A DNA stretch of 64,000 bases from Gemmatimonas sp. (GTDB lineage: Bacteria; Pseudomonadota; Alphaproteobacteria; SMXQ01). The notes below the pieces were generated by a model. The model was not told the DNA's origin and did no database searches. It saw only the letters and a program-made list of their open reading frames with translations. This document shows positions 230-64,000 of the stretch, one piece after another. Within the stretch, counting starts at the first letter, position 1; each line of letters begins with the position of its first letter. The position numbers and the translations under genes were made by a program. Location of the stretch: positions 48,331-112,330 of the forward strand of contig JBLNCI010000040.1 of assembly GCA_050260515.1 (NCBI GenBank), written 5' to 3'.

Positions 230-480
230 CGCCCACATCCTCTCCCCGCGGGAGAGACCGGCGGCCCGCTTCGGCGGGGCTCCGGCGCCGAAGGAGCAAC
301 CGCCCCGGAAACTCTCAGGCAAAAGGACCGCGGGGAGTTCGACACTCTGGAAAGCGGACGCGCCGATCGATCCGAGCGGCCCGTCCCACCGACGAAGTAA
401 GCCCGGCGGCGGCACTACCCGCCGAGCGAATCTTTCAGGTTCCCGCGACAGAGGGGGCGGGCGGCCATTCGGCCGCGATG
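230..480 (+). promoter_or_regulatory. Tandem glycine riboswitch (two aptamers) in the gcvT leader
   Basis: Aptamer 1 carries GGGAGAGACCGG...CGCCGAAGGAGCAACCGCC...CTCTCAGGCAAAAGGACCG. Aptamer 2 carries CTCTGGAAAGCGG...CCACCGACGAAGTAAGCC...CTTTCAGG. This matches the conserved glycine riboswitch core GGAGAG / ACCGAAGGGGCAA / CTCAGGCAAAAGGAC. It sits immediately 5' of gcvT. Confidence 0.8.
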
Positions 481-13000: not shown

Positions 13001-14295
13001 GCGATCTCGAGCCGTTCGGCCTCGGCCTCGGCGTCGCGCAGGCGCTCGTTCAGGCGCTCGGCGCGGGCCTCGGCCTCGGCGCGACGACGGGCGAGCTCGG
13101 CGAGGCGCGCTTCGGCCGCGGCCACCTCGGCGGTGAGCCGGGCAAGGGTTTCCTCGGCCGCGACGCGCTCGGCGGTCGCCTGGTCGAGGGCGCGGCGCGC
13201 CGCGTCCTCCGCCTCGTCCTCGGCGAGCTGCTCAGAGGCGATGCGCTCGGCTTCCTCATCGAGGCGGGCGATGGCGGACGCCGCGTCTTCGGCGCGGATG
13301 CGCTCGCGCTCGGTATCGCCGGCGATCTGCGCCAGACGTTGGCTGAGCTGCGCCTCGGCGGCGCGGACGCGCTCTTCCTCGCGGTCGAGTTCCTCGCTCG
13401 CGAGCTTCAGGCGCTGCAGCCTGGCGGCCGCCTCGGCCTCGGCTTCGCGGAGCGGCGGCAGCGCGGCGGCGGCTTCGGCCTCGCGCGTCGTCGCCGACGC
13501 GACCTCGGTGGTGAGGCGCGCGACCTCGGCCTCGAGCGCCGTCAGGCGCTCGGTCGAGTCGCGGAGCTGCGCGACCGCCGCGGTGTAGCGGTGATGCAGG
13601 ACCTGCGCCTCGGCACGGCGGATGTGGTCGGAGAGGTTGCGGTAGCGCGACGCCTGGCGGGCCTGCTTCTTGAGCGTCTGGAGCTGGGCTTCGAGGGTGC
13701 GGATCACGTCCTCGAGGCGGGTGAGGTTGGCCTCGGCGGCCTTCAACCTGAGCTCCGCCTCGTGACGGCGCGAGTAGAGGCCGGTGATGCCCGCGGCCTC
13801 CTCGAGGATGGCGCGGCGCTCCGACGGCTTCGCCGCGATCAGCGCGCCGATCTGGCCCTGGCTGACGATGGCGGTCGAGCGTGCGCCGGTCGCGGCGTCG
13901 GCGAACAGCGTCTGGACGTCGCGCAGCCGCGACTCGGCGCCGTTGACCTTGTAGGCGGTGCCGGAGCCGCGCTCGATCCGGCGGATGATCTCGATCTCGT
14001 CCTGGTCGTTGAACTGCGCCGGCGCCTTGCGATCGTTGTTGTCCATAACGATGCCGACTTCGGCGATGTTGCGCGGCGGCCGGTTCTGCGTGCCGGCGAA
14101 GATGATGTCGTCCATCTCCGCGCCGCGGAGCTGACGCGCCGAGTGTTCGCCCATCGCCCAGCGCAGCGCGTCGATCAGGTTGGACTTGCCGCAGCCGTTG
14201 GGACCGACGATCCCGGTGAGGCCCGGTTCGATGATGAGCTCGGTGGTGTCGACGAAGGACTTGAAGCCGGAAAGTCGAAGCTTGGAGAACTGCAC
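10081..14295 (-). CDS. smc: Chromosome segregation protein SMC with in-frame tandem-repeat expansions in both coiled-coil arms
   Basis: 1404 aa. The N-terminal head is MQFSKLRLSGFKSFVD...GPNGCGKSNL (Walker A). The hinge is GVALAPQLQLGQRLVSRDGALWRWDGY. The C-terminal head carries LSGGEKALT...CVLDEVDAPLD. A single uninterrupted ORF spans all of it. Confidence 0.95.
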   Translation of the reverse strand: MQFSKLRLSGFKSFVDTTELIIEPGLTGIVGPNGCGKSNLIDALRWAMGEHSARQLRGAEMDDIIFAGTQNRPPRNIAEVGIVMDNNDRKAPAQFNDQDEIEIIRRIERGSGTAYKVNGAESRLRDVQTLFADAATGARSTAIVSQGQIGALIAAKPSERRAILEEAAGITGLYSRRHEAELRLKAAEANLTRLEDVIRTLEAQLQTLKKQARQASRYRNLSDHIRRAEAQVLHHRYTAAVAQLRDSTERLTALEAEVARLTTEVASATTREAEAAAALPPLREAEAEAAARLQRLKLASEELDREEERVRAAEAQLSQRLAQIAGDTERERIRAEDAASAIARLDEEAERIASEQLAEDEAEDAARRALDQATAERVAAEETLARLTAEVAAAEARLAELARRRAEAEARAERLNERLRDAEAEAERLEIAVADRAEIEAAEARLADARQQAEAARAELAAAEAEAQRIAEASREELAAAEAEAQRIAEAGREQLAAAEAEAQRVAEEQARAIAAAEADAQQVAEAETQKIAAAEADAQRFAEAETQKIAAAEADAQRVAETARERIAAAEADAQRVAEAVRQQIAAAESDRERVDAEARRRAEEAQATDAMLAKFTAEDSALRNLLAHSEGEGYEPLIDHVSVTPGYETALGVALGDDLIAPVNEAAPIHWRTLPPFDASAPLPGDVRPLSDFAHAPMALARRLSQIGVVETAAEGVALAPQLQLGQRLVSRDGALWRWDGYTVSAGAQTAAAVRLGQRNRLAELAPLIAAAEANSAEMRAAVEAARERQQAAAEAERAAREAARERQQAATDAVNAAREAAREEQQAALESVNAVRADVRQRQQEAVDAVNAVRLAAREREQAADEVVNAVRLAAREREQAADDAMNAVRAEVRQRQQAATDTVNAVRVAARERQQAADAATSSARDAVRRADADERSARETHADVAQKAAQLATKLETVRELIAQLTGDRDEAVAAAEAAQPGPDDESSLAARREDSERAREELSSRHGIEAEAARAHDEVLRQAAARRQRIADIGTERSGWQERESHAQSQIDELESRRASAEEERARLAARPAEIMTERHALGDRIDEAARERQARADALATAEATLNEAAAALKKVDGELRDVREDRVRTEGVVAQATQTLAQVEERVAERVACLPTELLAVAEKTEEEIEALPEAEARLNRLTRERDNMGPVNLRAEEEAKELNEQIAGMTTERDDLVAAIARLRHGINELNREGRERFLAAFEKVNGHFQTLFTRLFGGGRAHLELTEAEDPLEAGLEIMASPPGKKLQVLSLLSGGEKALTTTALLFAVFLTNPAPICVLDEVDAPLDDSNIGRFCNLIEEIGNITKTRFLIVTHHRITMARMDRLYGVTMPERGVSQLVSVDLQGVTRLRAIA
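11491..11922 (-). repeat. 8 x 54-bp (18-aa) imperfect tandem repeat inside smc, C-terminal coiled-coil arm
   Basis: Repeat units read QQAATDAVNAAREAAREE / EQAADEVVNAVRLAARER etc. (residues ~792-935). Two units are identical at DNA level (CGTCGGCGGCCTGCTCGCGTTCGCGCGCGGCGAGACGAACCGCGTT). Confidence 0.85.
12484..12915 (-). repeat. 8 x 54-bp (18-aa) imperfect tandem repeat inside smc, N-terminal coiled-coil arm
   Basis: Units AAAEAEAQRIAEASREEL / AAAEADAQRVAETARERI etc. span residues ~461-604. At the DNA level 54-bp periodicity is visible in ...CTCGGCCGCCGCGATCTTCTGGGTCTCGGCCTCGGCGAATCG.... Confidence 0.85.
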
Positions 14296-15669: not shown

Positions 15670-18047
<2,378 letters not shown>

Positions 18048-28945: not shown

Positions 28946-29020
28946 TGGGGCGTAGCCAAGCGGTAAGGCAGCGGATTTTGATTCCGCCATTCCCAGGTTC
29001 GAATCCTGGCGCCCCAGCCA
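28946..29020 (+). tRNA. tRNA-Gln (anticodon UUG)
   Basis: 75 nt. Acceptor stem TGGGGCG/CGCCCCA, anticodon stem GCGGA/TCCGC with loop TTTTGAT (anticodon TTG), T-arm CCAGGTTCGAATCCTGG, encoded 3' CCA. Confidence 0.85.
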
Positions 29021-51978: not shown

Positions 51979-53238
51979 TTACAGGCCCATGATCTTGCGA
52001 TAGCCGCTGTAGAAGCCGCGGATCATCGACTCGGTCACCATGTGGTCGGTGTCCTCGAAGTCGCGTCCGCCCATCTCCACGACGGCTTTTGCCTCGGGGT
52101 AGTTGGCGACGCCGAACTGCGTCGCCTCCATGACCTCGCTGTCGTCGGCGGAGACGAAGCCGGCCGGACCCATCAGGTTGGCCTGGCGCAGGCGCTTCAT
52201 GGTCATCTCCTCCGACTCGTCGGCGTAGCCGAAGAACGTCCAGTGGAGCTCGAACTCCTGCGGACTCACGGTCTGGATCTGGCGCATCGCGAGCGTGTTC
52301 GACTGCTGCTGGATGATCAGGTTCGGCCAGATCGTCTGCATGACGACGGTGGCGTCGCCCGGGAACTCCTTCTCGGGCTGCAGCATGTTGGGGTTGGCGA
52401 GCTTGAGATGCGCGATGTTCTGGCGGATGTCCTCGGTGCCCTCGTCGTGCTTCTGCTCGCCGCGCTGCGAGATCTGCACACCGTGCAGCCCGGTGCCATC
52501 GAGCTGCACCTTCGACGGGTTGTCGGCGCGGAACAGGCTGAACGAGACCAGGAACACGTGCATCAGCGACGCGTGGTACGGGTCCTTGATGTTCTCGAAC
52601 ATCAGCTTCCAGTTCGAGCGCAGGCGCTGACGCTCGTAGCCGAGGACCTTCAGCGGACGGCCGTTGAACACCCGGTTCACCCAGTGGAGCATCTTCGGCC
52701 CGAGGTACTCCTCGAACGACGGCATGCCGTGATCGAACGAGGCGAAGATCGTGCCGTTGTAGGTCGCGACCTTCAGCTCCTGCAGCCGATGCTCCTTCAT
52801 GTCGAAGTCCTTCGGCATGCCGCCGTGCTTCTTGAGCCCGCGGCGGAACGGGATGGCGATGGTCTCGCCCTTCAGGTTGTAGGTCCACTGGTGGTACGGG
52901 CAGATGAACTCGGTCTTGCCCTTGCCGTGGGTCTCGTAACAGAACTGCACGCCGCGGTGGGCGCAGCGGTTCGCGAACACGCGCACCTGGCCGGTCTCGT
53001 CGCGGGTGTAGATGACCGGCTTGGAGCCGATCTTGGTGGCGCGGAAATCGCCGGTGTTCGGGATCTCGCACTCGAAGCCGATGAAGCTGTAGGCGGAGCC
53101 GCCGAACACGACCTCCTGCTCGCGCGCGTAGATCTCGGGCGCGGAGTACACCCAGTAGGGGACGCGGGTGTATCCCTCCTCAGGCCAGGTGAAGTTCAGC
53201 GGCGAATTCTTCAGTTGGGTGGCCATGGCTCTTCCCAT
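51979..53238 (-). CDS. Rieske non-haem iron oxygenase alpha subunit
   Basis: 419 aa. The Rieske motif is CAHRGVQFCYETHGKGKTEFICPYHQW. The mononuclear Fe motif is DPYHASLMH (D-x2-H-x4-H) in the catalytic domain. Confidence 0.85.
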   Translation of the reverse strand: MGRAMATQLKNSPLNFTWPEEGYTRVPYWVYSAPEIYAREQEVVFGGSAYSFIGFECEIPNTGDFRATKIGSKPVIYTRDETGQVRVFANRCAHRGVQFCYETHGKGKTEFICPYHQWTYNLKGETIAIPFRRGLKKHGGMPKDFDMKEHRLQELKVATYNGTIFASFDHGMPSFEEYLGPKMLHWVNRVFNGRPLKVLGYERQRLRSNWKLMFENIKDPYHASLMHVFLVSFSLFRADNPSKVQLDGTGLHGVQISQRGEQKHDEGTEDIRQNIAHLKLANPNMLQPEKEFPGDATVVMQTIWPNLIIQQQSNTLAMRQIQTVSPQEFELHWTFFGYADESEEMTMKRLRQANLMGPAGFVSADDSEVMEATQFGVANYPEAKAVVEMGGRDFEDTDHMVTESMIRGFYSGYRKIMGL

Positions 53239-55419: not shown

Positions 55420-56418
55420 TCAGATCCGGCTCTGCTCGAGCGTCGAGGCGGCGAACAGGTCGGCGATCGTCAGCGGGCGCGGCGAAAGTCCCTGGCTGTG
55501 GTGGTAGCGGAGGAAGGCCTCGATCGTGACGCGGTTGGCCTGGACGCCGTACGGCCAGAAGTCGCGGCCGAACAGCGCCGCCGCCTCGTTCGCCATCTCC
55601 TCGACCCACGGCAGCGCGACCGGCGGAATGTTGATGCTGCGCAGCTCGTCGAGGGCCAGGTCCTTCGCCTTGTCGAACGCCTTGTAGATGCTGGCCGGCA
55701 GCCACGGGTACTGCTGGACCTTCGATTCGCGGACGCCGACCAGGTGCATGATCGGGAAGATGCGCGTCTTCGCGTAGTACGCCTTTTCGGCCGACACGAA
55801 GTCCTCGAACAGCCGGGCGATGTTTGGCGTCCGCTTGAGATAGACGCTCGGCGGCCGCGGCGCGATGACGGCATCGAGCTCGCCCGAGGCGAGCATTTCG
55901 GACAGCGTCCGGTCCGACGGGATCAGTTGCAGCTCGACTCCGGCCGGGAGCTTCAGCGCCACCTTCTCGGTGCGGCCCGCCTGCTCCAGCCCGCCGGTGC
56001 GCCAGCGGATGTCCGAGGGCTTCACGGCGTACTCGTCCTCGAGCACGCCCCGCATCCAGACGACGGCGGTCACCTGATACTCGGGAACGCCGACCAGCTT
56101 GCCCTTGAGGTCCTGCGGCTTCGCGATGCCGCGGTCGGTGCGGACGTAGATGCCGGAATGGCGGAACTTGCGGCCGGGGAAGATCGGGATCGCGACGTAC
56201 GGGCACTCGCCGCGGGCGCGCAGCGCGACGTAGTTGGAGAACGACAGCTCGGCGACGTCGAACTCCTCGTGGTGCAGCGCGCGGTGGAACATCTCCTCGG
56301 GCTCGAGGTCGAAGTACGTCGGATCGCAGCCTTCGATGGTCACGCGGCCGTCGAGCAGCGGGCGGGTGCGGTCGTAGTTCGAGAAGGCGACGGTCAGCGG
56401 GACGCGATGCACGGGCAC
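55420..56418 (-). CDS. Cytoplasmic NMT1/THI5-fold protein, 4,5-dihydroxyphthalate decarboxylase (PhtD)-like
   Basis: GTG start at VPVHRVPLTVAFSNYDRTRPLLDGRV. About 332 aa with no signal peptide. The 5' part of the listed 422-aa ORF is Arg/Ser-rich antisense junk overlapping ctaA. The family assignment is from recalled motif similarity and not verified. Confidence 0.4.
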   Translation of the reverse strand: MPVHRVPLTVAFSNYDRTRPLLDGRVTIEGCDPTYFDLEPEEMFHRALHHEEFDVAELSFSNYVALRARGECPYVAIPIFPGRKFRHSGIYVRTDRGIAKPQDLKGKLVGVPEYQVTAVVWMRGVLEDEYAVKPSDIRWRTGGLEQAGRTEKVALKLPAGVELQLIPSDRTLSEMLASGELDAVIAPRPPSVYLKRTPNIARLFEDFVSAEKAYYAKTRIFPIMHLVGVRESKVQQYPWLPASIYKAFDKAKDLALDELRSINIPPVALPWVEEMANEAAALFGRDFWPYGVQANRVTIEAFLRYHHSQGLSPRPLTIADLFAASTLEQSRI

Positions 56419-56434
56419 CTCGGTCAGGTTGGTG

Positions 56435-57526
56435 TCAGGAGTTGGCGGTGAGGTCGAGCACGATGCGCGTGCGCTCCATTTCGATGCGGTACCACTGGAT
56501 CGAGGCGAGCAGGGCGAGCGCTCCGGCCTGGTGCGCGAGGGCGAGCGGAATCGGCACGACGTTGATGAGCGTGAGGATGCCGAGCGTCGGCTGGACGAGC
56601 GCCATGCCGCCAACGTGGTGCAGCGCGACGCGCGCCTTGCGCGGCAGCGGCCGTCGCATCGCCGTGAGCCACACCGCGATTCCGGCAAGTGCCGTGACCA
56701 TGCCGAGCACGCGGTGGTCGAACTGCACCGCGGCGACGTTCTCGAAGAGATTGCGCCACCACGGCTCGAGCATGAGATAGCCGTCCGGCACGAGGCGGCC
56801 GTCCATCAGCGGGAAGGTGTTGTAGGTGAGGCCCGCCTTGAGGCCGGCGACGAACGAGCCTGCGATCGCCGTCACGTAGGCGAGCACGAGGAGGGCGCCG
56901 GCGCGGCGGCGCATGTCGTGCGCGGCGGCCGCCTCGTCGGGTGTCGGCAGCGGCCGGTGGAGCAGCTTCAGCCCGATCGTCAGCAACGACAGGAAGATCA
57001 GCACGCCGACCGCGAAGTGGAGCGCGAGCCGGTAGGCGCTGACCTCGGGACGGTCGACCAGCCCGCTCGCGACCATGAGCCAGCCGATGACCGCCTGGAC
57101 GCCGCCGAGCGCGAAGACCCCGAGCAGGCGCGTCAGCAGCGCGCGCCCGGTATCGCCGCGGAACGCGCCGCGGACCAGGAACACGAGGAACGGGATCAGG
57201 AAGCCGACGCCGATCAGGCGTCCCCACAGGCGATGGACGAACTCGACCCAGAAGATGCGTTTGAACTCGGGAAGCGCCATCCCGTAGTTCAGCATCTGGT
57301 ACTCGGGCGACTGCTGATAGAGGCGGAACGCCTCGTCCCAGGCGCGATCGCTGAGCGGCGGGATCGCCCCGGTGATCGGCTGCCACACGACGATCGACAG
57401 GCCGGATTCGGTCAGCCGCGTGAGCCCGCCGATCAGCACCATGGCCGCCGCCATCGCGGCGAGGGTGAAGATCCAGGCGACGATGACCCGGCGGCGGGGA
57501 TGGTCGTAGGCGGCAAGCGGAAGCAT
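56435..57526 (-). CDS. ctaA: Haem A synthase (CtaA/COX15)
   Basis: Start MLPLAAYDHPRRRVIVAWIF. It has 8 TM helices with conserved His pairs (HRLWGRLIG, HFAVG, HHVGG). Confidence 0.8.
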   Translation of the reverse strand: MLPLAAYDHPRRRVIVAWIFTLAAMAAAMVLIGGLTRLTESGLSIVVWQPITGAIPPLSDRAWDEAFRLYQQSPEYQMLNYGMALPEFKRIFWVEFVHRLWGRLIGVGFLIPFLVFLVRGAFRGDTGRALLTRLLGVFALGGVQAVIGWLMVASGLVDRPEVSAYRLALHFAVGVLIFLSLLTIGLKLLHRPLPTPDEAAAAHDMRRRAGALLVLAYVTAIAGSFVAGLKAGLTYNTFPLMDGRLVPDGYLMLEPWWRNLFENVAAVQFDHRVLGMVTALAGIAVWLTAMRRPLPRKARVALHHVGGMALVQPTLGILTLINVVPIPLALAHQAGALALLASIQWYRIEMERTRIVLDLTANS

Positions 57527-57803
57527 GAGGGCCTCGGAGGGACGGGCTACGGCGCGGTGCCGCCGCAACATATTGAAGAATATGAGGAGTTCGCGTCCGG
57601 CGGAACAGCCCAGCGACACGCCACATATTCACCTAACTGTGATGTAATTTTTCGAATTTCACACCACGTTAATTGACAAATGAGCGGTCGGCGCTAGGAT
57701 ACGCGCCTCTTGGACATTCCGCTCCCCGACCCCGTCGCGGGAGCGTTTTGCGCATTTGCCGCCGCTGCCGTACAAACCCGGCGGCCGTTTTTAGGAGATC
57801 GTC

Positions 57804-59972
57804 ATGTCCCAGTCCACCTCCGCCAACGTGCGCTTCCGTTCGGGGGAGATCGTCGTCGGCACGCAGGCCGCCGAGCCGCTGGCGCGCGTCGAGGACGCGG
57901 CGGAATTCCGCGCGGCCTATGCGCGGAAGGTGTCCGGCGAGTGGGACAACGCGAAGTGGCAGCCGTTCCGCCTCCGCTTCGGCGTCTACGGCCAGCTCCA
58001 GCCCAACGTCCATATGGTGCGCATGAAGGTCCCGGGCGGCGTGCTGCCGTTCGCGTGGGCGCGCGCCGCCGCCGAGGCCGCCCGCCGCTGGGGCAACGGC
58101 AAGGTGCACGTCACCACGCGCCAGGATCTCCAGACCCACTTCGTGAAGCCGGACGACGCTCCGGACATGCTCGACTTCATCTACGCGCGCGGGCTGACGA
58201 CCCGCGAGGCGTGCGGCAACACTCTGCGCAACATGACCTCGTGCCCGCTCGCGGGCGTCTGCCCGAAGGAGCACGTCGACGCGGGCGATCTCGCCGCGCG
58301 GCTCGCGCAGGTGTGGATCCGTCATCCGCTGGTCCAGCACATGCCGCGCAAATTCAAGGTCACGGTGTCGGGCTGCGAGGCCGATTGCGGCGCGAGCGGC
58401 ATCCATGACCTCGGGCTCGTCGCGGTCCGCAAGGACGGCAAGGTCGGCTTCAAGGTCTACGCCGGCGGCGGCACCGGCGGTCAGGCCGTGTCCGCGGTGC
58501 TCGTCAAGGACTTCGCCGAGGAATCGGAGCTGCCGAGCGTCCTCGAGGCGCTGGTGCGGCTGCATCAGAAGTACTCGAACCGCCGCAACCGCAACGCCGC
58601 GCGCATGAAGTTCGTCCTCAAGCGCTTCGGCGAGGAGAAGTTCAAGGCGCTGTTCGACGAGGAGTACGCGCGGGTGCGCGGTCTGCCGACCCGGCCGTGG
58701 GACAAGCTCGCGTTCCGCAAGGGCGACGAATCGCTGCCGCCGCCGGCCTCGCCCGGCGGCGTGGTGACGCGCGACGACGGCCAGATCGGTGTCGTCGTGA
58801 AGGCCCCGCTCGGCATCTACACTTCGGCCGAGCTCGAGCACATCGTTGCGCTCGCCGAAGAGGCGGGGGCCAAGGAGCTGCGCACCACCCGCGACCAGAA
58901 CCTGATCATCGTCGCGCCGAAGCCCGAGCGCACGGCGGAGGTCGTCGACCGCATCCGCACGATGGGCTTCTACGTCGAGAACAAGGCGGGCGACGTGCCC
59001 GACGTCGTCGCCTGCCCGGGCACGACCACCTGCGGCATCGGCATCACCAACTCCCAGAACTTCGGCAAGGAAGTCCAGGACGCGGTGCGCGAGTTCACGA
59101 CGAAGCCGAACCTCACCGTCAAGATCTCCGGGTGCCAGAACGGCTGCGGCCTCCATCATGTCGCCGACTTCGGCTTCCGCGGCATGGGCAAGAAGATCGG
59201 CAGCCGCAACGCGCCGCATTACCAGATCTACATCGGCGGCGACTTCCGCGTCGTCGGCCACATCGGCCTGTCGGGGCCCGTCGTGCCGGCGCGGCTCGCC
59301 GAGAAGGCGCTGCGCCTGATGCTGAAGGGCTACGAGGACGGCCGCGCGAGCGCGACCGAATCGGTGCGCGACTGGGCGTTGCGCGTCGGCAAGGACGGGC
59401 TCAAGGCGCTGGTGAAGCCGATCGAGGCCGAGATCAACCCGGCCGACGAGGGTCTGTTCTTCGACTTCGGCGAGGACTGGGAGTTCTCGCCGCCGGCGGG
59501 CCGCACCTCGGAATGCGCCGCGGGCTTCGCCGACGACGACCTGCAGAAGGACCTTGCCGACGACGCGCTGGTCGACATGGATCGCGCGATCGCCGTCGCC
59601 AACGTGCCCGTGGCGGTGGTCCGCGCGAACGAGGGGCTGCGCTATGCCGCCCAGCGCCTGCGCATCAAGGCCGGCGACCCGGGCAACGAGAGCGACGCCG
59701 AGGACATGGTGCTGGGAGCCATTCGCGCCTATTTCGCCCACGAGGCGGACGTGATCGCGGCGCTCGACGGCTTCGTGAAGGCGCGCGACGCGGCGAAGGC
59801 GAGCCATGACGGCCTGTCGGCCGTCGAGGCGCTGCGCGAGGCCTTGGCGCTGTGGCTCGACACCGTGGCCGAGGTCATCGAGAAGCCGGCGATCCAGCCG
59901 GCGTTCGATCCCGCGATGCTCGGCGACGGCGGCGGCTCGGTTGCGGCCATGCTGCGGGGTAGCGGAGCCTGA
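57804..59972 (+). CDS. Ferredoxin-dependent nitrite/sulfite reductase family hemoprotein (sirohaem-[4Fe-4S]) with ~150-aa C-terminal extension
   Basis: 722 aa with two NiR/SiR half-domains. The cluster/sirohaem ligands are in CPGTTTCGIGITNSQ and ISGCQNGCGLHH. Residues after about 570 have no counterpart in typical 550-590-aa NirA/Sir enzymes. Confidence 0.8.
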   Translation: MSQSTSANVRFRSGEIVVGTQAAEPLARVEDAAEFRAAYARKVSGEWDNAKWQPFRLRFGVYGQLQPNVHMVRMKVPGGVLPFAWARAAAEAARRWGNGKVHVTTRQDLQTHFVKPDDAPDMLDFIYARGLTTREACGNTLRNMTSCPLAGVCPKEHVDAGDLAARLAQVWIRHPLVQHMPRKFKVTVSGCEADCGASGIHDLGLVAVRKDGKVGFKVYAGGGTGGQAVSAVLVKDFAEESELPSVLEALVRLHQKYSNRRNRNAARMKFVLKRFGEEKFKALFDEEYARVRGLPTRPWDKLAFRKGDESLPPPASPGGVVTRDDGQIGVVVKAPLGIYTSAELEHIVALAEEAGAKELRTTRDQNLIIVAPKPERTAEVVDRIRTMGFYVENKAGDVPDVVACPGTTTCGIGITNSQNFGKEVQDAVREFTTKPNLTVKISGCQNGCGLHHVADFGFRGMGKKIGSRNAPHYQIYIGGDFRVVGHIGLSGPVVPARLAEKALRLMLKGYEDGRASATESVRDWALRVGKDGLKALVKPIEAEINPADEGLFFDFGEDWEFSPPAGRTSECAAGFADDDLQKDLADDALVDMDRAIAVANVPVAVVRANEGLRYAAQRLRIKAGDPGNESDAEDMVLGAIRAYFAHEADVIAALDGFVKARDAAKASHDGLSAVEALREALALWLDTVAEVIEKPAIQPAFDPAMLGDGGGSVAAMLRGSGA

Positions 59973-60105
59973 CCCGCGGTCCTATCTAACAGTCGCCCGG
60001 CGCCTCGCGCCGGATCGTTCCCACCGCCCGGCCCGAACCAGCGAAGGGCCGGGCGGCGCCTTACCAAGCGCCCGGCGATTTCGGGCGGAGTTTCCGGAGT
60101 AGCCG

Positions 60106-63100
60106 GTGTCCGAGCTCACCCTGAAGCACGGTCTTCGCTTCGAGGACCTCTACGATCACGCGGGCCTCGCCCGCCTCGACGGGGCGTTCCGCGCCGAGCT
60201 CGCCAAGTCCGATGCCGAGCTTGCCGCGCGTCTCGATGCGGCGCGGGTCGATCCCGACGCGCTGGGCCAGAAGCCCGAGGCCGACCTGCTGCTCGCCGTC
60301 GCGCCGTACTTCGAGGATTTCGTCGCCGATCTGTTCGGCATCCGCGCCGACGTGCAGGCGCTGGCCGAGAAGCACAACGCGCTCGCGCCGCTCTACGCCT
60401 GCAAGCGCCTGTTCGTGCAGCGCCGCGCCGCCAAGGCGGTGAAGGCCGACCAGATCGAGGGCCTCGACGGCCGCGCGCTCGAAGCCGAGCTGCTCGCCGT
60501 GCTCGGCATCGCGACGTTCGACGAGCTCGCGTTCGCGCGGACCGTCATGTCGTGGCTCGACGACGAGCCCGCCCACGAAGCGCCGCTCGCGCTGGCCGCG
60601 CGCTACGCCGCGTGGGCGACGCTGTCGAAGCCCGGCCGCGAGCGCCACGCCGGCAGCGTGCTGTTCCATATTCCGGCGAAGATCGACCCGATCCACCTCG
60701 TGCACGTCGAGAAGACGGAGCGCGACGGCGTCGCCGTGCTCGGGCTGCCGCAGGAGAAGCAGCGTCGCCGCGAGGGCTTCGGCCTGACCGACCCGCGCAT
60801 GGACATGGTGGCGGCGCTCGATCACGCCCACTACTGCATCGTCTGCCACAACCAGGGCAAGGATTCCTGCTCGAAGGGTCTCAAGGACCGCAAGACCGGC
60901 GACTACCAGAAGTCGGCGTTCGGCGTGTCCCTGCCGGGCTGCCCGCTCGACGAGCGCATCTCGGAGATGAACTCGCTCAAGTCCGAGGGCCACGCCATCG
61001 CGGCGCTTGCCGCCGTCGCCATCGACAACCCGATGTGCGCGGCGACCGGGCATCGCATCTGCAACGACTGCATGAAGGCCTGCATCTATCAGAAGCAGGA
61101 GCCGGTCAACATCCCGCAGGTCGAGACGCGCTCGCTCACCGACGTGCTCGATCTGCCGTGGGGCTTCGAGATCTACGCGCTGCTGACGCGGTGGAATCCG
61201 CTCAACCTGCGCCGGCCGTATCCCAAGGTCGAGTCCGGCTACAAGGTGCTGGTCGTCGGCATGGGCCCGGCGGGCTTCACGCTCGCCCATCACCTGCTCA
61301 ACGAGGGCCACGCGGTCGCCGCCATCGACGGCCTCAAGATCGAGCCGCTCGACCCGGTGCTCTCCGGCGTGAAGGCCGACGGCTCGCGCGTGCCGTTCAA
61401 GCCGGTGCGCGACTGGAAGTCGCTGCGCGAGAATCTCGACGACCGCACCATGGCGGGCTTCGGCGGCGTCGCCGAATACGGCATCACCGTCCGCTGGGAC
61501 AAGAACTTCCTCAAGCTGGTGCGCCTGCTGCTCGAGCGCCGCTCGACTTTTGCGCTCTACGGCGGGGTCCGCTTCGGCGGCACCATCACCGTCGAGGACG
61601 CGTTCGCGATGGGGTTCGATCACATAGCGCTGTGCGCCGGCGCCGGCCGTCCGACCTTCATCAGCATGCCCAACGCGCTCGCCCGCGGCGTGCGTCAGGC
61701 CTCCGACTTCCTCATGGGCCTGCAGCTCACCGGCGCGGCCAAGGCCGACTCGATCGCCAATCTCGTCGTGCGGCTGCCGGTGGTCGTCATCGGCGGCGGC
61801 CTCACCGCCATCGACACCGCGACCGAATCGCTCGCCTACTACCCGGTGCAGGTCGAGAAGTTCCTCGCGCGCTACGAGACGCTGATCGCCGAGCGCGGCG
61901 AGGAGGCGGTGCGCGCCCGCTGGACGCCGTCCGAGGCCGAGATCGCCGAGGAGTTCCTCGCCCACGGCCGCGCGATCCGCGCCGAGCGTGAGACTGCGAA
62001 ACGGGACAGCCGTGCGCCGAAGATCCGCGAGCTGTTGCAGTCGTGGGGCGGCGCCACCATCGCCTACCGCCGCTGGCTCACCGACAGCCCGAGCTACACG
62101 CTGAACCACGAGGAAGTGGAGAAGGCGATGGAGGAGGGCATCGTCTTTGCCGAGGGCCTGAGCCCGGTCGAGGTCGAGATCGACGACGCCGGCCACGCCA
62201 AGGCGCTCGAGTGCGCGCGGATGGAGCCCGGCGACGACGGCCGCCTCCAGGACACCGGCACGACGGTGTTCCTGCCGGCGCGCACCATCCTGGTCGCCGC
62301 CGGCACCCAGCCCAACACCGTGCTTGCCCGCGAATCCAACACGCCGATCGCGCTCGACGGCCGCCACTTCCAGGCGGTCGACGAGGACGGCAACTCGGTG
62401 CATCCGGAGCGCTCGGCGAAGCCCGCCAAGACCCACGTGCTGATGGCGGTCGAGCAGGACGGCAAGCGCGTCAGCTTCTTCGGCGACCTGCATCCGTCGT
62501 TCGCCGGCAACGTCGTCAAGGCGATGGCCTCGGCCAAACGCGGCTACCCGGTGGTCAGTCGCACGCTCGCCAGGCGCACGCCCGCGGGCCCGAGTCCGCG
62601 CGAGCTGTTCGCGACCCTCAACCGCGATCTCCGGCCGCGCGTCCACGCCGTCAACCGGCTCACGCCGACGATCATCGAGGTGGTGGTCGAGGCGCCGGCC
62701 GCGGCGCGCGCGTTCCAGCCGGGCCAGTTCTTCCGGCTGCAGAACTTCGAGACCGCGGCGCCGCTGGTCGACGGCACGCGGCTCGCAATGGAAGGCCTGG
62801 CGCTCACCGGTGCCTGGGTCGACCGCGACAGGGGCCTGGTCTCGGTGATCGTGCTCGAGATGGGCGGCTCGTCGGATCTGTGCGCGATGCTGAAGCCCGG
62901 GGAGCCCGTCGTGCTGATGGGCCCGACCGGCACGCCGACCCACACGCCGCCCAAGGAGACCGTGCTGCTGGTCGGCGGCGGCCTCGGCAACGCCGTGCTG
63001 TTCTCGATCGGCAAGGCGCTGCGCGCCGCCGGCTCGAAGGTGCTGTACGTCGCCGGCTACAAGAAGCGCATCGACCGCTACAAGGTCGAGGAGATCGAGG

Positions 63101-63615
63101 CCGCGGCCGACGTCGTCGTCTGGGCGTGCGACGAGGCGCCGGGGTTCACCCCCGACCGGCCGCAGGACGCGGCGTTCGTCGGCAACATCGTCGAGGCGAT
63201 CAAGGCCTACGGCGAGGGCAAGCTCGGCGCGCCCGCGATCAAGCTGTCCGAGGTCGACCGCATCGTCGCGATCGGCTCCGACGCGATGATGGCCGCGGTG
63301 GGGCGCGCCCGCCACGGCGTGCTGCAGCCGCTGCTCAAGCCCGAGCATGCCGCGATCGGCTCGATCAACTCGCCGATGCAGTGCATGATGAAGGAGATCT
63401 GCGCGCAGTGCCTCCAGCCGCACGTCGATCCCAAGACCGGCGAGACCACGGTGGTGTTCTCCTGCTTCAACCAGGATCAGCCGCTCGATGAGGTGAACTT
63501 CGCCGGGCTGCGCGACCGGCTGTCGCAGAACGGCGTCCAGGAGAAGCTGACGGCGCAGTGGATCGACCGCTGCCTCAAGCGCCTCGGCGCCCGGACGGCG
63601 ACGGCGGCCGAGTAG
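60106..63615 (+). CDS. Large multidomain flavo-iron-sulfur oxidoreductase: N-terminal unknown domain + GltD/NfnB-like (2x[4Fe-4S], FAD, NAD(P)H) + PyrK/NfnA-like ([2Fe-2S], FAD)
   Basis: 1169 aa. The GltD-like cluster region is YCIVCHNQGKDSC...GCPLDERISEMNSL...CNDCMKAC. The FAD/NAD(P) motifs are KVLVVGMGPAGFTLAH and VVVIGGGLTAIDTA. The C-terminal PyrK-like part has FQPGQFFRL (FAD), LLVGGGLGNAVL (NAD) and CMMKEICAQC...C (2Fe-2S). Confidence 0.7.
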   Translation: MSELTLKHGLRFEDLYDHAGLARLDGAFRAELAKSDAELAARLDAARVDPDALGQKPEADLLLAVAPYFEDFVADLFGIRADVQALAEKHNALAPLYACKRLFVQRRAAKAVKADQIEGLDGRALEAELLAVLGIATFDELAFARTVMSWLDDEPAHEAPLALAARYAAWATLSKPGRERHAGSVLFHIPAKIDPIHLVHVEKTERDGVAVLGLPQEKQRRREGFGLTDPRMDMVAALDHAHYCIVCHNQGKDSCSKGLKDRKTGDYQKSAFGVSLPGCPLDERISEMNSLKSEGHAIAALAAVAIDNPMCAATGHRICNDCMKACIYQKQEPVNIPQVETRSLTDVLDLPWGFEIYALLTRWNPLNLRRPYPKVESGYKVLVVGMGPAGFTLAHHLLNEGHAVAAIDGLKIEPLDPVLSGVKADGSRVPFKPVRDWKSLRENLDDRTMAGFGGVAEYGITVRWDKNFLKLVRLLLERRSTFALYGGVRFGGTITVEDAFAMGFDHIALCAGAGRPTFISMPNALARGVRQASDFLMGLQLTGAAKADSIANLVVRLPVVVIGGGLTAIDTATESLAYYPVQVEKFLARYETLIAERGEEAVRARWTPSEAEIAEEFLAHGRAIRAERETAKRDSRAPKIRELLQSWGGATIAYRRWLTDSPSYTLNHEEVEKAMEEGIVFAEGLSPVEVEIDDAGHAKALECARMEPGDDGRLQDTGTTVFLPARTILVAAGTQPNTVLARESNTPIALDGRHFQAVDEDGNSVHPERSAKPAKTHVLMAVEQDGKRVSFFGDLHPSFAGNVVKAMASAKRGYPVVSRTLARRTPAGPSPRELFATLNRDLRPRVHAVNRLTPTIIEVVVEAPAAARAFQPGQFFRLQNFETAAPLVDGTRLAMEGLALTGAWVDRDRGLVSVIVLEMGGSSDLCAMLKPGEPVVLMGPTGTPTHTPPKETVLLVGGGLGNAVLFSIGKALRAAGSKVLYVAGYKKRIDRYKVEEIEAAADVVVWACDEAPGFTPDRPQDAAFVGNIVEAIKAYGEGKLGAPAIKLSEVDRIVAIGSDAMMAAVGRARHGVLQPLLKPEHAAIGSINSPMQCMMKEICAQCLQPHVDPKTGETTVVFSCFNQDQPLDEVNFAGLRDRLSQNGVQEKLTAQWIDRCLKRLGARTATAAE

Positions 63616-63679
63616 CGAGAGGGGCTTGGCGCGGGCACTCGTCCGCGCCACACTCGTTCCGGCAGCGAAGGAGCGACCC

Positions 63680-64000
63680 ATGTCCCGTGCCGCGAGTCAC
63701 GTCCGTCTCGATTACGCCGAGTTCCGCAAGCGGGCGCCCCAGGTCGCCGACGCGCTGACCGCGCTGAGCAAGACCGCGCGCGAGAACGGGATCGAGCCCG
63801 ACCTCGTCGAGCTGATCAAGATCCGCGCCTCGCAGATCAACGGCTGCGCGTTCTGCCTCCAGTACCACCTCAATGAGGCGCGCAGGCTCGGCGTCGCGCC
63901 GGAGAAGCTCGACCTCGTCGCGACGTGGCGCGAGGCCGGCATCTACTCGGCCCGCGAACAGGCGGCGCTCGCCTGGACCGAGGCGCTGACCGAGGTCTCG
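63680..64000 (+). CDS. Carboxymuconolactone decarboxylase / AhpD-like family protein (3' truncated by window end)
   Basis: MSRAASHVRLDYAEFRKRAP... contains the AhpD-core motif INGCAFCLQYH. Confidence 0.6.
   Translation, partial: MSRAASHVRLDYAEFRKRAPQVADALTALSKTARENGIEPDLVELIKIRASQINGCAFCLQYHLNEARRLGVAPEKLDLVATWREAGIYSAREQAALAWTEALTEVS

Follow-up and report, generated by a model that had tools for sequence, protein, structure and literature searches.

The six-electron reduction of sulfite is the sole step of sulfate assimilation that needs an electron supply of the kind considered here. CysJ delivers NADPH electrons to the sirohaem sulfite reductase of its own operon and combines a flavodoxin-like flavin mononucleotide (FMN) domain with a flavin adenine dinucleotide (FAD) domain like that of ferredoxin-NADP+ reductase (FNR), without iron-sulfur (Fe-S) clusters. 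Other accepted donors are ferredoxin:NADP+ reductases, namely Fpr2, which acts with CysX in Corynebacterium glutamicum (fpr2-cysIXHDNYZ cluster), and FprA of pseudomonads; these are FNR-type flavoenzymes of ~30-50 kDa with a single nucleotide site and no Fe-S cluster. Lewis et al. are said to have implicated, in 2013, a ferredoxin:NAD(P)H reductase in pseudomonad sulfate assimilation. On the dissimilatory side, DsrL, an NfnB/GltD-like NAD(P)H oxidoreductase, acts with the sulfite reductase DsrAB. In Alphaproteobacteria that have cysI, cysJ is absent, and the source of the electrons has been described as unresolved (bioRxiv 10.1101/072470). In the same work, Price et al. proposed DUF2849 in this context, noted DUF934 as an accessory protein without the CxxC motifs of the ferredoxin-like CysX, and mentioned CysX of C. 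glutamicum (bioRxiv 10.1101/072470). Here, we describe a gene at positions 60106-63615 (+) of a 64,000-nucleotide stretch of contig JBLNCI010000040.1 (hereafter the window), which encodes a single-chain, Nfn-like iron-sulfur flavoprotein of the RP005_N/PRK06567-like family directly downstream of a NirA-like sirohaem reductase gene. The best reading of our data is that this protein is a general low-potential electron supplier that has been repeatedly recruited into sulfate-assimilation operons, and not a dedicated replacement of CysJ. More specifically, and with a probability of roughly 55%, we propose a reductase driven by NAD(P)H. It would supply electrons to the sulfite reductase encoded upstream, probably via an FdxA-type ferredoxin, and additionally serve other ferredoxin-dependent enzymes.

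The open reading frame (ORF) starts with GTG, 9 nucleotides (nt) downstream of a Shine-Dalgarno GGAG, and encodes 1169 amino acids (aa) followed by a stop codon. The genome has ~70% G+C and the window contains many spurious ORFs; among the overlapping frames only this one has the signature of a real gene (G+C at codon positions 1, 2 and 3 of 0.70, 0.46 and 0.95), and a codon-usage likelihood model selects it as well. An antisense ORF at 60061-63681, at 1206 aa longer than the gene itself, was rejected as a high-GC artefact with a low-complexity translation rich in R, A and G. An original prediction, made from the sequence of the window, had described the 1169-aa product as a fusion of an NfnB(GltD)-like and an NfnA(PyrK)-like part in reversed order, encoded 133 nt downstream of a sirohaem reductase gene, and had proposed it as a strong candidate for the dedicated electron donor of that reductase. 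The gene is borne out by the ORF listing, the codon signature and the GGAG, and its position by the gap of 133 nt between 59972 and 60106.

The fusion, too, is confirmed by sequence matches, fold matches and motifs. Nfn-type enzymes are the sole relatives of the protein in a sequence search of the PDB: residues ~300-745 match the large subunits of P. furiosus NfnI/Xfn and T. maritima NfnB (HMMER: 5vj7_A, 5jca_L, 4ylf_B), and residues ~850-1040 match the small subunits NfnI-S and NfnA (5jca_S, 2.2e-12; 4ylf_A, 5.3e-11). An AlphaFold2 model built with 65 homologues is confident over the whole length (predicted local distance difference test, pLDDT, 90.9; predicted template modelling score, pTM, 0.91). 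With this model, Foldseek ranks Nfn-type structures above dihydropyrimidine dehydrogenase (DPD) and GltD, with template modelling (TM) scores of 0.80-0.82 for the large subunits (5jca_L, 5vj7_A, 4ylf_B) and of 0.89 and 0.84 for the small subunits (5jca_S and 4ylf_A, respectively). Both module folds of Nfn are thus shared at TM 0.80-0.82 and 0.84-0.89, while sequence identity is ~20%. Pfam assigns Pyr_redox_2 to residues 379-575 (6.2e-12) and gives a weak, sub-threshold Fer4_20 match at 278-341; neither Pfam nor NCBIfam finds the domains typical of CysJ (FMN flavodoxin-like, FAD_binding_1/NAD_binding_1) in the protein, which is unrelated to CysJ in sequence and cofactors despite a comparable proposed role.

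The cofactor set matches that of Nfn, with two [4Fe-4S] sites, one [2Fe-2S] site, two flavin sites and two nicotinamide sites. A Fer4_20-like helical domain (60820-61200 (+), residues ~239-365) carries seven Cys (244, 247, 255, 279, 319, 322, 326) that are conserved without exception in 65 homologues of as little as 43% identity, and in this region TGHRICNDCMKAC of our protein aligns to TGRVCPQEEQCEGAC of NfnI. Two [4Fe-4S] clusters are predicted to be held by these Cys and one ligand other than Cys, presumably as in NfnB and DPD. The following NfnB/GltD-like FAD and NADPH domains (61201-62610 (+), residues ~366-835) have GMGPAG (385) at the FAD site and GGGLTA (563) and YRR (654-656) at the NADPH site, so that the GxGxxA and YRR motifs of NfnB are retained. 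The C-terminal NfnA/PyrK-like module (62638-63612 (+), residues ~845-1169) comprises an FAD-binding beta-barrel, an NAD(H) site with the NfnA-like GGGLGNA (957-963) and a [2Fe-2S] motif, C1093-x5-C1099-x2-C1102-x17-C1120, whose four Cys are invariant in the 65 homologues. All of these nucleotide-site motifs are conserved across homologues down to 43% identity. Several features nonetheless set the protein apart from Nfn, which consists of two subunits or of an A-B fusion of ~750 aa. Here, a single chain runs from the NfnB-like to the NfnA-like part, with an additional 238-aa helical domain at the N-terminus and a family-specific helical insertion of ~70 aa in the NADPH domain (61843-62049 (+), residues ~580-648; helices 566-633 in the model). 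Cys provides all four [2Fe-2S] ligands, in contrast to the Asp and three Cys that we take to be the ligands in NfnA. Furthermore, the family occurs in aerobes and endosymbionts rather than in anaerobes.

The N-terminal domain (60106-60819 (+), residues 1-238), which the original prediction had regarded as novel, turned out to be already catalogued as Pfam PF27156 (RP005_N), an assignment that is precomputed for the database protein P0001, which is 100% identical, and for each of the 240 homologues listed. An exact-sequence look-up of P0001 gave no record. Our local Pfam scans of this domain and of the NfnA-like tail were empty even at E <= 1, in the case of the N-terminal domain because PF27156 is newer than the local Pfam copy. 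The domain is all-alpha (helices 12-180) up to a beta-hairpin at 202-213 and is modelled at pLDDT 87.7. Its conserved motifs are KRxFxQR (100-106) and RxGFxLTD (222-229); residues 1-238 contain no Cys/His metal-ligand pattern, and Foldseek found no PDB match for the fold (best E-value 2.1). The name RP005_N evidently derives from Rickettsia prowazekii RP005. Carriers of the domain form 1407 representative clusters, and full-length carriers are always 960-1195 aa long. N-terminal domain, GltD-like part and PyrK-like part stand in one chain in our protein and the homologue alignments are colinear, which is the three-part architecture of the PRK06567/RP005-type proteins of Rickettsiales, N-terminal domain included. 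By these comparisons the protein is a member of the catalogued, functionally uncharacterised PRK06567-like 'GltD-UbiB chimera' family. NCBIfam NF005128 (PRK06567) matches residues 8-983 (profile 5-925 of 1031) with 762 bits. As this is under the curated cut-off of 1072, the NCBI rule would not name the protein an equivalog; it stands in a sister branch to this Rickettsiales equivalog.

More than 8000 database proteins matched at E <= 1e-5, GltD-type relatives included, and the best 120, which were listed, are all family members. Two branches are apparent. A free-living branch, to which our protein belongs, shares 60-72% identity across Alpha- and Betaproteobacteria, Acidobacteriota and Planctomycetes, which points to strong purifying selection on the family. 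Its genome matches at 61-72% include, among Alphaproteobacteria, Rhodospirillales, Stellaceae, Reyranella, Azospirillum, Caulobacteraceae, Xanthobacteraceae and Rickettsiales metagenome-assembled genomes (MAGs), and elsewhere Burkholderiales, Nitrosomonadaceae, Gallionella, Acidobacteriota, Paludisphaera (Planctomycetes) and Nevskia. A divergent endosymbiont branch at 43-55% identity comprises Holosporales, Paracaedibacteraceae, Odyssella and Rickettsiales. Members have been reported from nearly all Rickettsiales genomes (PMC3641634) and from Ehrlichia, where ECH_0778 is listed as a presumed glutamine-to-glutamate enzyme (PMC4251998). Fused Nfn homologues of 'Pattern C', described from Actinobacteria, Alpha- and Gammaproteobacteria and uncharacterised, likewise have the a-FAD/NAD/[2Fe-2S] part at the C-terminus and exceed other fused Nfn by ~200 aa in length (Liang, Huang & Wang 2019, PMC6405883). 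The representative of Pattern C, however, is Mobiluncus curtisii, and the corresponding PRK12779 and PRK12778 give our protein only 105-149 bits. PRK12778 (bifunctional dihydroorotate dehydrogenase B NAD-binding subunit/NADPH-dependent glutamate synthase) accounts for the 149 bits, against a cut-off of 1103.

Evidence for a link to sulfite reduction comes from the gene neighbourhoods of the family. Eighty-one genome loci were fetched with up to 10 kb of flank (82 loci were counted), genes were called with a per-locus codon model trained on the family gene, and neighbours were clustered; 80 metagenome loci, seeded from the type found in Rickettsiales MAGs, served as an independent sample. Among the 82 genome loci no neighbour is universal. 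Eleven of them have a NIR_SIR gene within 10 kb, which in 10 cases is located upstream in the same orientation, and cys genes occur within 10 kb in 12 if cysH in L021 is counted. Chance would give 0.3-1.2 loci per 82 for cys-type linkage, so the conserved linkage to nitrite/sulfite reductase genes that the original prediction had suggested looking for in other genomes was indeed found. In the metagenome sample, cys genes are upstream in 5 of 80 loci. Pooled, 17 of the 162 loci have cys genes (cysI, cysH, cysD, cysN), on the same strand and upstream except in the convergent L034. At 70% identity, the 162 proteins form 27 clusters, eight of which have a cys-linked member and two an fdxA-linked one, and the cys-linked proteins are spread over five separate clades of a neighbour-joining tree.

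The gene orders differ among these loci. In the window and in L002, cysI directly precedes the family gene (cysI->target), in L005 a sirohaem synthase gene intervenes (cysI-sirohaem synthase->target), and L008 has cysI-...-cysD-cysNC->target. The longest series, cysI-sirohaem synthase-cysH-cysD-cysNC->target, is found in three Rickettsiales MAGs, where the cysNC stop codon overlaps or abuts the ATG of the family gene (TAATG, TGATG). Nitrosovibrio tenuis, Nitrosomonas and a related metagenome chromosome share the order cysI-(DUF934)-cysH-cysD-cysN->target, L021 has sirohaem synthase-cysH->target, and L034, a Caulobacteraceae MAG, has the convergent order target-> <-cysH-DUF934-cysI. Neighbours were identified by Pfam (PAPS_reduct, APS_kinase plus GTP_EFTU, sirohaem synthase, DUF934). 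The partner sulfite reductases are of three subtypes; the one in Rickettsiales passes the CysI model PRK13504 with 672 bits (cut-off 457), and its operon has no cysJ. These MAGs encode a complete sulfate-assimilation operon (CysI-type reductase, sirohaem synthase, cysH, cysD and fused cysNC; L047 8031-10007, L064 7411-9378, L079 8065-9984), which is unusual for Rickettsiales, better known for reduced, host-dependent genomes.

A second recurrent neighbour is a 7Fe ferredoxin gene (Fer4 plus DUF3470, FdxA type). It adjoins the family gene on the same strand within ~130 nt in four genome loci, upstream in L018, L034 and L063 and downstream in L072, and lies 50-129 nt upstream in eight of the 80 metagenome loci, giving 12 loci across both samples. 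L034 carries fdxA, the family gene and cysH-DUF934-cysI together. Neither the cys-operon nor the fdxA association was found in the literature searched, outside which most subscription journals lie. Other neighbour families, such as ABC ATPases and short-chain dehydrogenases/reductases, track single clades and were taken as synteny by descent. In one betaproteobacterial clade (L032, L045, L054), a pyrD gene of class 2 (quinone type, as judged by sequence) is located 44-120 nt upstream on the same strand; PyrK is a partner of class-1B dihydroorotate dehydrogenases.

In the window, the partner is a NirA-like sirohaem/[4Fe-4S] reductase gene at 57804-59972 (+), which encodes 722 aa (NIR_SIR 1.3e-51, NIR_SIR_ferr 3.2e-28; core ~residues 1-545). 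Its product is under every NCBIfam cut-off, with the NirA family as best match at 196 bits. An orthologue with 54% identity heads the cysD-cysNC operon in L008, which suggests sulfite rather than nitrite as substrate, and the enzyme is probably an assimilatory sulfite reductase. The core is followed by a helical C-terminal extension of ~180 aa (about 59439-59969 (+)) without family assignment, for which no Pfam match was obtained at E <= 1. Database relatives of the extension number only eight, each of which either carries the annotation of a nitrite/sulfite reductase fragment or is fused to one. The reductase of Nitrosovibrio tenuis (L062 4008-6119) also has a C-terminal extension of similar size (~160-180 aa), yet homology between the two extensions is not significant (E = 0.24).

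Reductase gene and family gene are probably co-transcribed. A sigma-70-like promoter candidate, TTGACA-16-TAGGAT at 57673-57700 (+), identified by its consensus match (10 of 12 positions), is the only such site in 57400-64000, against a mean of 0.3 in shuffled sequences, and is the putative start of a transcription unit running from the NirA-like gene into the family gene. In the 5' leader of the NirA-like gene, downstream of this site and before the ATG at 57804, a hairpin resembling a terminator, with CGTTTTTAGG after it, was noticed at 57764-57785 (+), and it could act as an attenuator. The intergenic spacer (59973-60105 (+), 133 nt), which carries the GGAG 9 nt before the GTG, contains GC-rich hairpins but neither a T-tract nor a terminator-like site, in agreement with the hairpin lacking a U-tract that the original prediction had placed between the two genes. 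Folding of the spacer is not unusual (z = -1.06), and no Rfam match or riboswitch was found in 57500-60200 at E <= 1. The order NirA-like->target is kept in relatives at 86-93% identity, with a gap of only 36 nt in L085 (86%). Downstream, 65 nt 3' of the family gene, a gene of the carboxymuconolactone decarboxylase (CMD) family, AhpD-like, begins at an ATG preceded by AAGGAG and is cut by the window end (63681-64000 (+); Pfam CMD 3.7e-21). The order NirA-like->target->CMD is also present in L085 (CMD 13623-14084) and L086 (13586-14074), the two closest relatives, with gaps of 65-82 nt across the window and these two, and the CMD gene may be co-transcribed with the family gene.

From what was observed, i.e., the gene, its architecture, the conservation of cofactor motifs, the fold matches and the neighbourhood statistics, we infer the substrates, the direction of electron flow, a ferredoxin intermediate and the co-transcription. 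Briefly, NADPH would reduce the NfnB-like flavin, and the two [4Fe-4S] clusters would pass single electrons on to a small FdxA-type ferredoxin or straight to a ferredoxin-dependent enzyme. The main client in the genome of the window would be the sirohaem sulfite reductase encoded 133 nt upstream. A side branch could lead from FAD via the [2Fe-2S] cluster and the second FAD to the second nicotinamide site. That a 7Fe ferredoxin gene recurs beside the family gene speaks for ferredoxin as an intermediate rather than for direct contact as in CysJ, and service to other ferredoxin-dependent enzymes would explain why endosymbionts retain the protein. The logic is that of Fpr2-CysX and FprA, in which a pyridine-nucleotide:ferredoxin reductase, sometimes with a small ferredoxin, supplies a ferredoxin-type CysI; those single-site flavoenzymes differ, however, from the multi-cofactor, Nfn-like protein described here. 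DsrL similarly links NAD(P)(H) with a sirohaem sulfite reductase, but has no NfnA-like module and no RP005_N domain and is dissimilatory. Conservation of the second nicotinamide/flavin/[2Fe-2S] module makes true Nfn chemistry possible, which would follow 2 NADPH + NAD+ + 2 Fd(ox) -> 2 NADP+ + NADH + 2 Fd(red). We regard actual electron bifurcation by the protein as rather unlikely.

Several observations weigh against a supply of electrons to sulfite reductase. Sulfite reduction needs no bifurcation on thermodynamic grounds, as CysJ manages with NADPH alone. Approximately 85-90% of loci have neither a cys nor an fdxA gene within 10 kb. Among the genome loci, 57 have an upstream flank of 6 kb or more, and 46 of these are without a cys gene; the Aliidongia and Azospirillum oleiclasticum loci have none. 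Odyssella and two other endosymbiont-type genomes have housekeeping neighbours only (pgk, ftsH and tilS among them). To our knowledge, Rickettsia and Ehrlichia do not assimilate sulfate; if this is so, retention of the family in such lineages implies that sulfite reduction is not its sole or ancestral role. Elsewhere in the window, tblastn found no cysH, cysD, cysN, sirohaem synthase, DUF934 or fdxA. Moreover, the homologue of Reyranella and Rhodospirillaceae relatives is directly divergent from ctaA, whereas in the window's clade the NirA-like gene lies between the two, in the stable order ctaA<- ->NirA-like->target->CMD. Given this divergent pair in sister clades, the NirA-like gene may be a secondary insertion, and it does look like an insertion into an older ctaA<->target arrangement. 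In published random barcode transposon sequencing of Azospirillum, DUF2849 and not the family described here was flagged as cofit with cysI (bioRxiv 10.1101/072470). Azospirillum does have a family member, in A. brasilense Sp245 an orthologue of ~1,164 aa with the annotation 'pyridine nucleotide-disulfide oxidoreductase', which may lack fitness data. Lastly, the literature searched contains no functional study, purification or mutation of any family member. The proposed donor role is thus partly supported by the recurrent sulfite-reductase and cys linkage, whereas the 'dedicated' status given to it by the original prediction is not, since most loci are unlinked and the endosymbiont-type members stand among housekeeping genes.

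Two alternatives deserve closer consideration. First, the protein could be a dedicated analogue of CysJ that docks on the NirA-like reductase, perhaps by means of its own N-terminal domain and the C-terminal extension of the reductase, and transfers NAD(P)H electrons to the [4Fe-4S]-sirohaem centre of the reductase with no need of free ferredoxin. Such a role is suggested by the immediate same-strand adjacency conserved in the window's clade and by the family gene filling the operon slot of cysJ in cysI operons that lack cysJ. It would also give a use to the extra ~160-180-aa extensions of the window and Nitrosovibrio reductases, and GltD, the closest paradigm, is known to hand electrons directly to its partner subunit. 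We nevertheless consider it improbable, as the partner reductases elsewhere are of three subtypes and mostly without an extension, the two known extensions are not detectably homologous, and the adjacency of fdxA in 12 loci points to a soluble ferredoxin. In addition, a sulfite reductase gene is missing from the surroundings of most family members, and some lineages are reported to lack the enzyme altogether (PMC3641634).

Second, the protein could be a housekeeping Nfn-type transhydrogenase/ferredoxin reductase that balances NADPH, NADH and ferredoxin pools for clients such as Fe-S assembly, radical-SAM enzymes or IspG/IspH, in which case its adjacency to the NirA-like gene would be owed to an accidental insertion next to ctaA. 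The extreme conservation and breadth of the family are in line with this, including the endosymbiont-type genomes with pgk, ftsH and tilS as neighbours and the presence in nearly all Rickettsiales (PMC3641634), and so are the retention of every Nfn cofactor site and the fact that divergent ctaA is the commoner neighbour in alphaproteobacterial relatives. Membership in cys operons in 8 of 27 deep clusters, with differing gene orders and translational coupling, is however far above chance and renders an accidental adjacency doubtful. This alternative and the NAD(P)H-driven supply of sulfite reductase and further enzymes do not exclude each other and differ mainly in whether sulfite reductase is accepted as a principal client here.

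Identity with DPD/PydA, whose hallmark is a C-terminal DHO_dh (FMN/pyrimidine) domain with two extra [4Fe-4S] clusters, was rejected: there is no DHO_dh match, the C-terminus is PyrK/NfnA-like, and the DPD matches cover only the shared N-terminal modules at TM 0.31-0.38. It is very improbable that the protein serves a glutamate synthase as its GltD-type small subunit, is an enzyme of the dihydropyrimidine/dihydroorotate dehydrogenase type or acts as reductase for the Rieske oxygenase of 51979-53238 (-), for all that DPD and GltD folds appear lower in the Foldseek list, class-2 pyrD lies directly upstream in one betaproteobacterial clade, and a Rieske alpha subunit gene is found ~7 kb upstream together with a faint BenC match (E = 0.0014), given that the GltD models score 52 (TIGR01317, cut-off 447.7) and 49.5 (TIGR01318, cut-off 482.95), that neither gltB nor a DHO_dh domain is present in or beside the gene, that the pyrD neighbour is of quinone type by sequence and confined to a single clade, and that the Rieske genes are on the opposite strand, with TRAP transporter genes and ctaA in between and synteny only in close relatives of the window. 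A gltB-like neighbour was not noticed among the annotated neighbour families of the 162 loci, for which no gltB query was made. The glutamate-synthase-associated or PydA-like identity that the original prediction had named as the competing outcome thus finds no such context here, with GltD scores far under the cut-offs and no DHO_dh domain.

The window as a whole has the look of an ordinary alphaproteobacterial chromosome, with smc, rnhB, ETF-QO, ispE, ctaA and a tRNA-Gln (28946-29020). At its start, a glycine riboswitch aptamer (RF00504, 68 bits) is located at 239-340 (+), upstream of the first coding region, and a CcrM-type N6-adenine methyltransferase (N6_N4_Mtase plus RAMA) is encoded at 16836-18047 (-). 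The Rieske ring-hydroxylating oxygenase alpha subunit gene at 51979-53238 (-) is adjoined in relatives by a beta subunit gene, and no reductase or ferredoxin component was found near it. An ORF for a periplasmic binding protein associated with a tripartite ATP-independent periplasmic (TRAP) transporter (55420-56688 (-), 422 aa) overlaps ctaA (56435-57619 (-)) by ~250 nt; its orthologues in L085 and L086 have 330 aa, so its start is probably downstream of the first in-frame TTG. Although the nearest relatives are MAGs of Alphaproteobacteria, the database protein with 100% identity bears the label 'MAG: Gemmatimonas sp.', which probably reflects a mis-binned contig.

Many Alpha- and Betaproteobacteria possess a CysI- or NirA-type sulfite reductase but no CysJ, and the protein described here is a testable candidate for the donor in these organisms. 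Fitness genetics had yielded only small accessory proteins without cofactors (DUF2849, DUF934) and left the donor open (bioRxiv 10.1101/072470). With 60-72% identity across phyla over 1,169 residues, the protein is among the most conserved uncharacterised redox enzymes of these lineages; it carries every cofactor site of the bifurcating Nfn and ends sulfate-assimilation operons in many independent clades. The family itself is already catalogued; new relative to characterised Nfn are the reversed fusion, the extra N-terminal domain, the aerobic hosts and the association with cys operons. It is tempting, if speculative and on balance unlikely to hold in full, to combine these features into a single-chain bifurcating Nfn that runs 'backwards' in aerobes, where the disequilibrium between NADPH and NAD+ would yield reduced 7Fe ferredoxin. 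This enzyme would be both the missing donor of sulfite reductases without CysJ in Alpha- and Betaproteobacteria and the housekeeping ferredoxin reductase of Rickettsiales-like endosymbionts, with the N-terminal domain as docking site for ferredoxin or a partner. If true, Nfn-type chemistry, hitherto a speciality of anaerobes, would have its place in aerobes and Rickettsiales.

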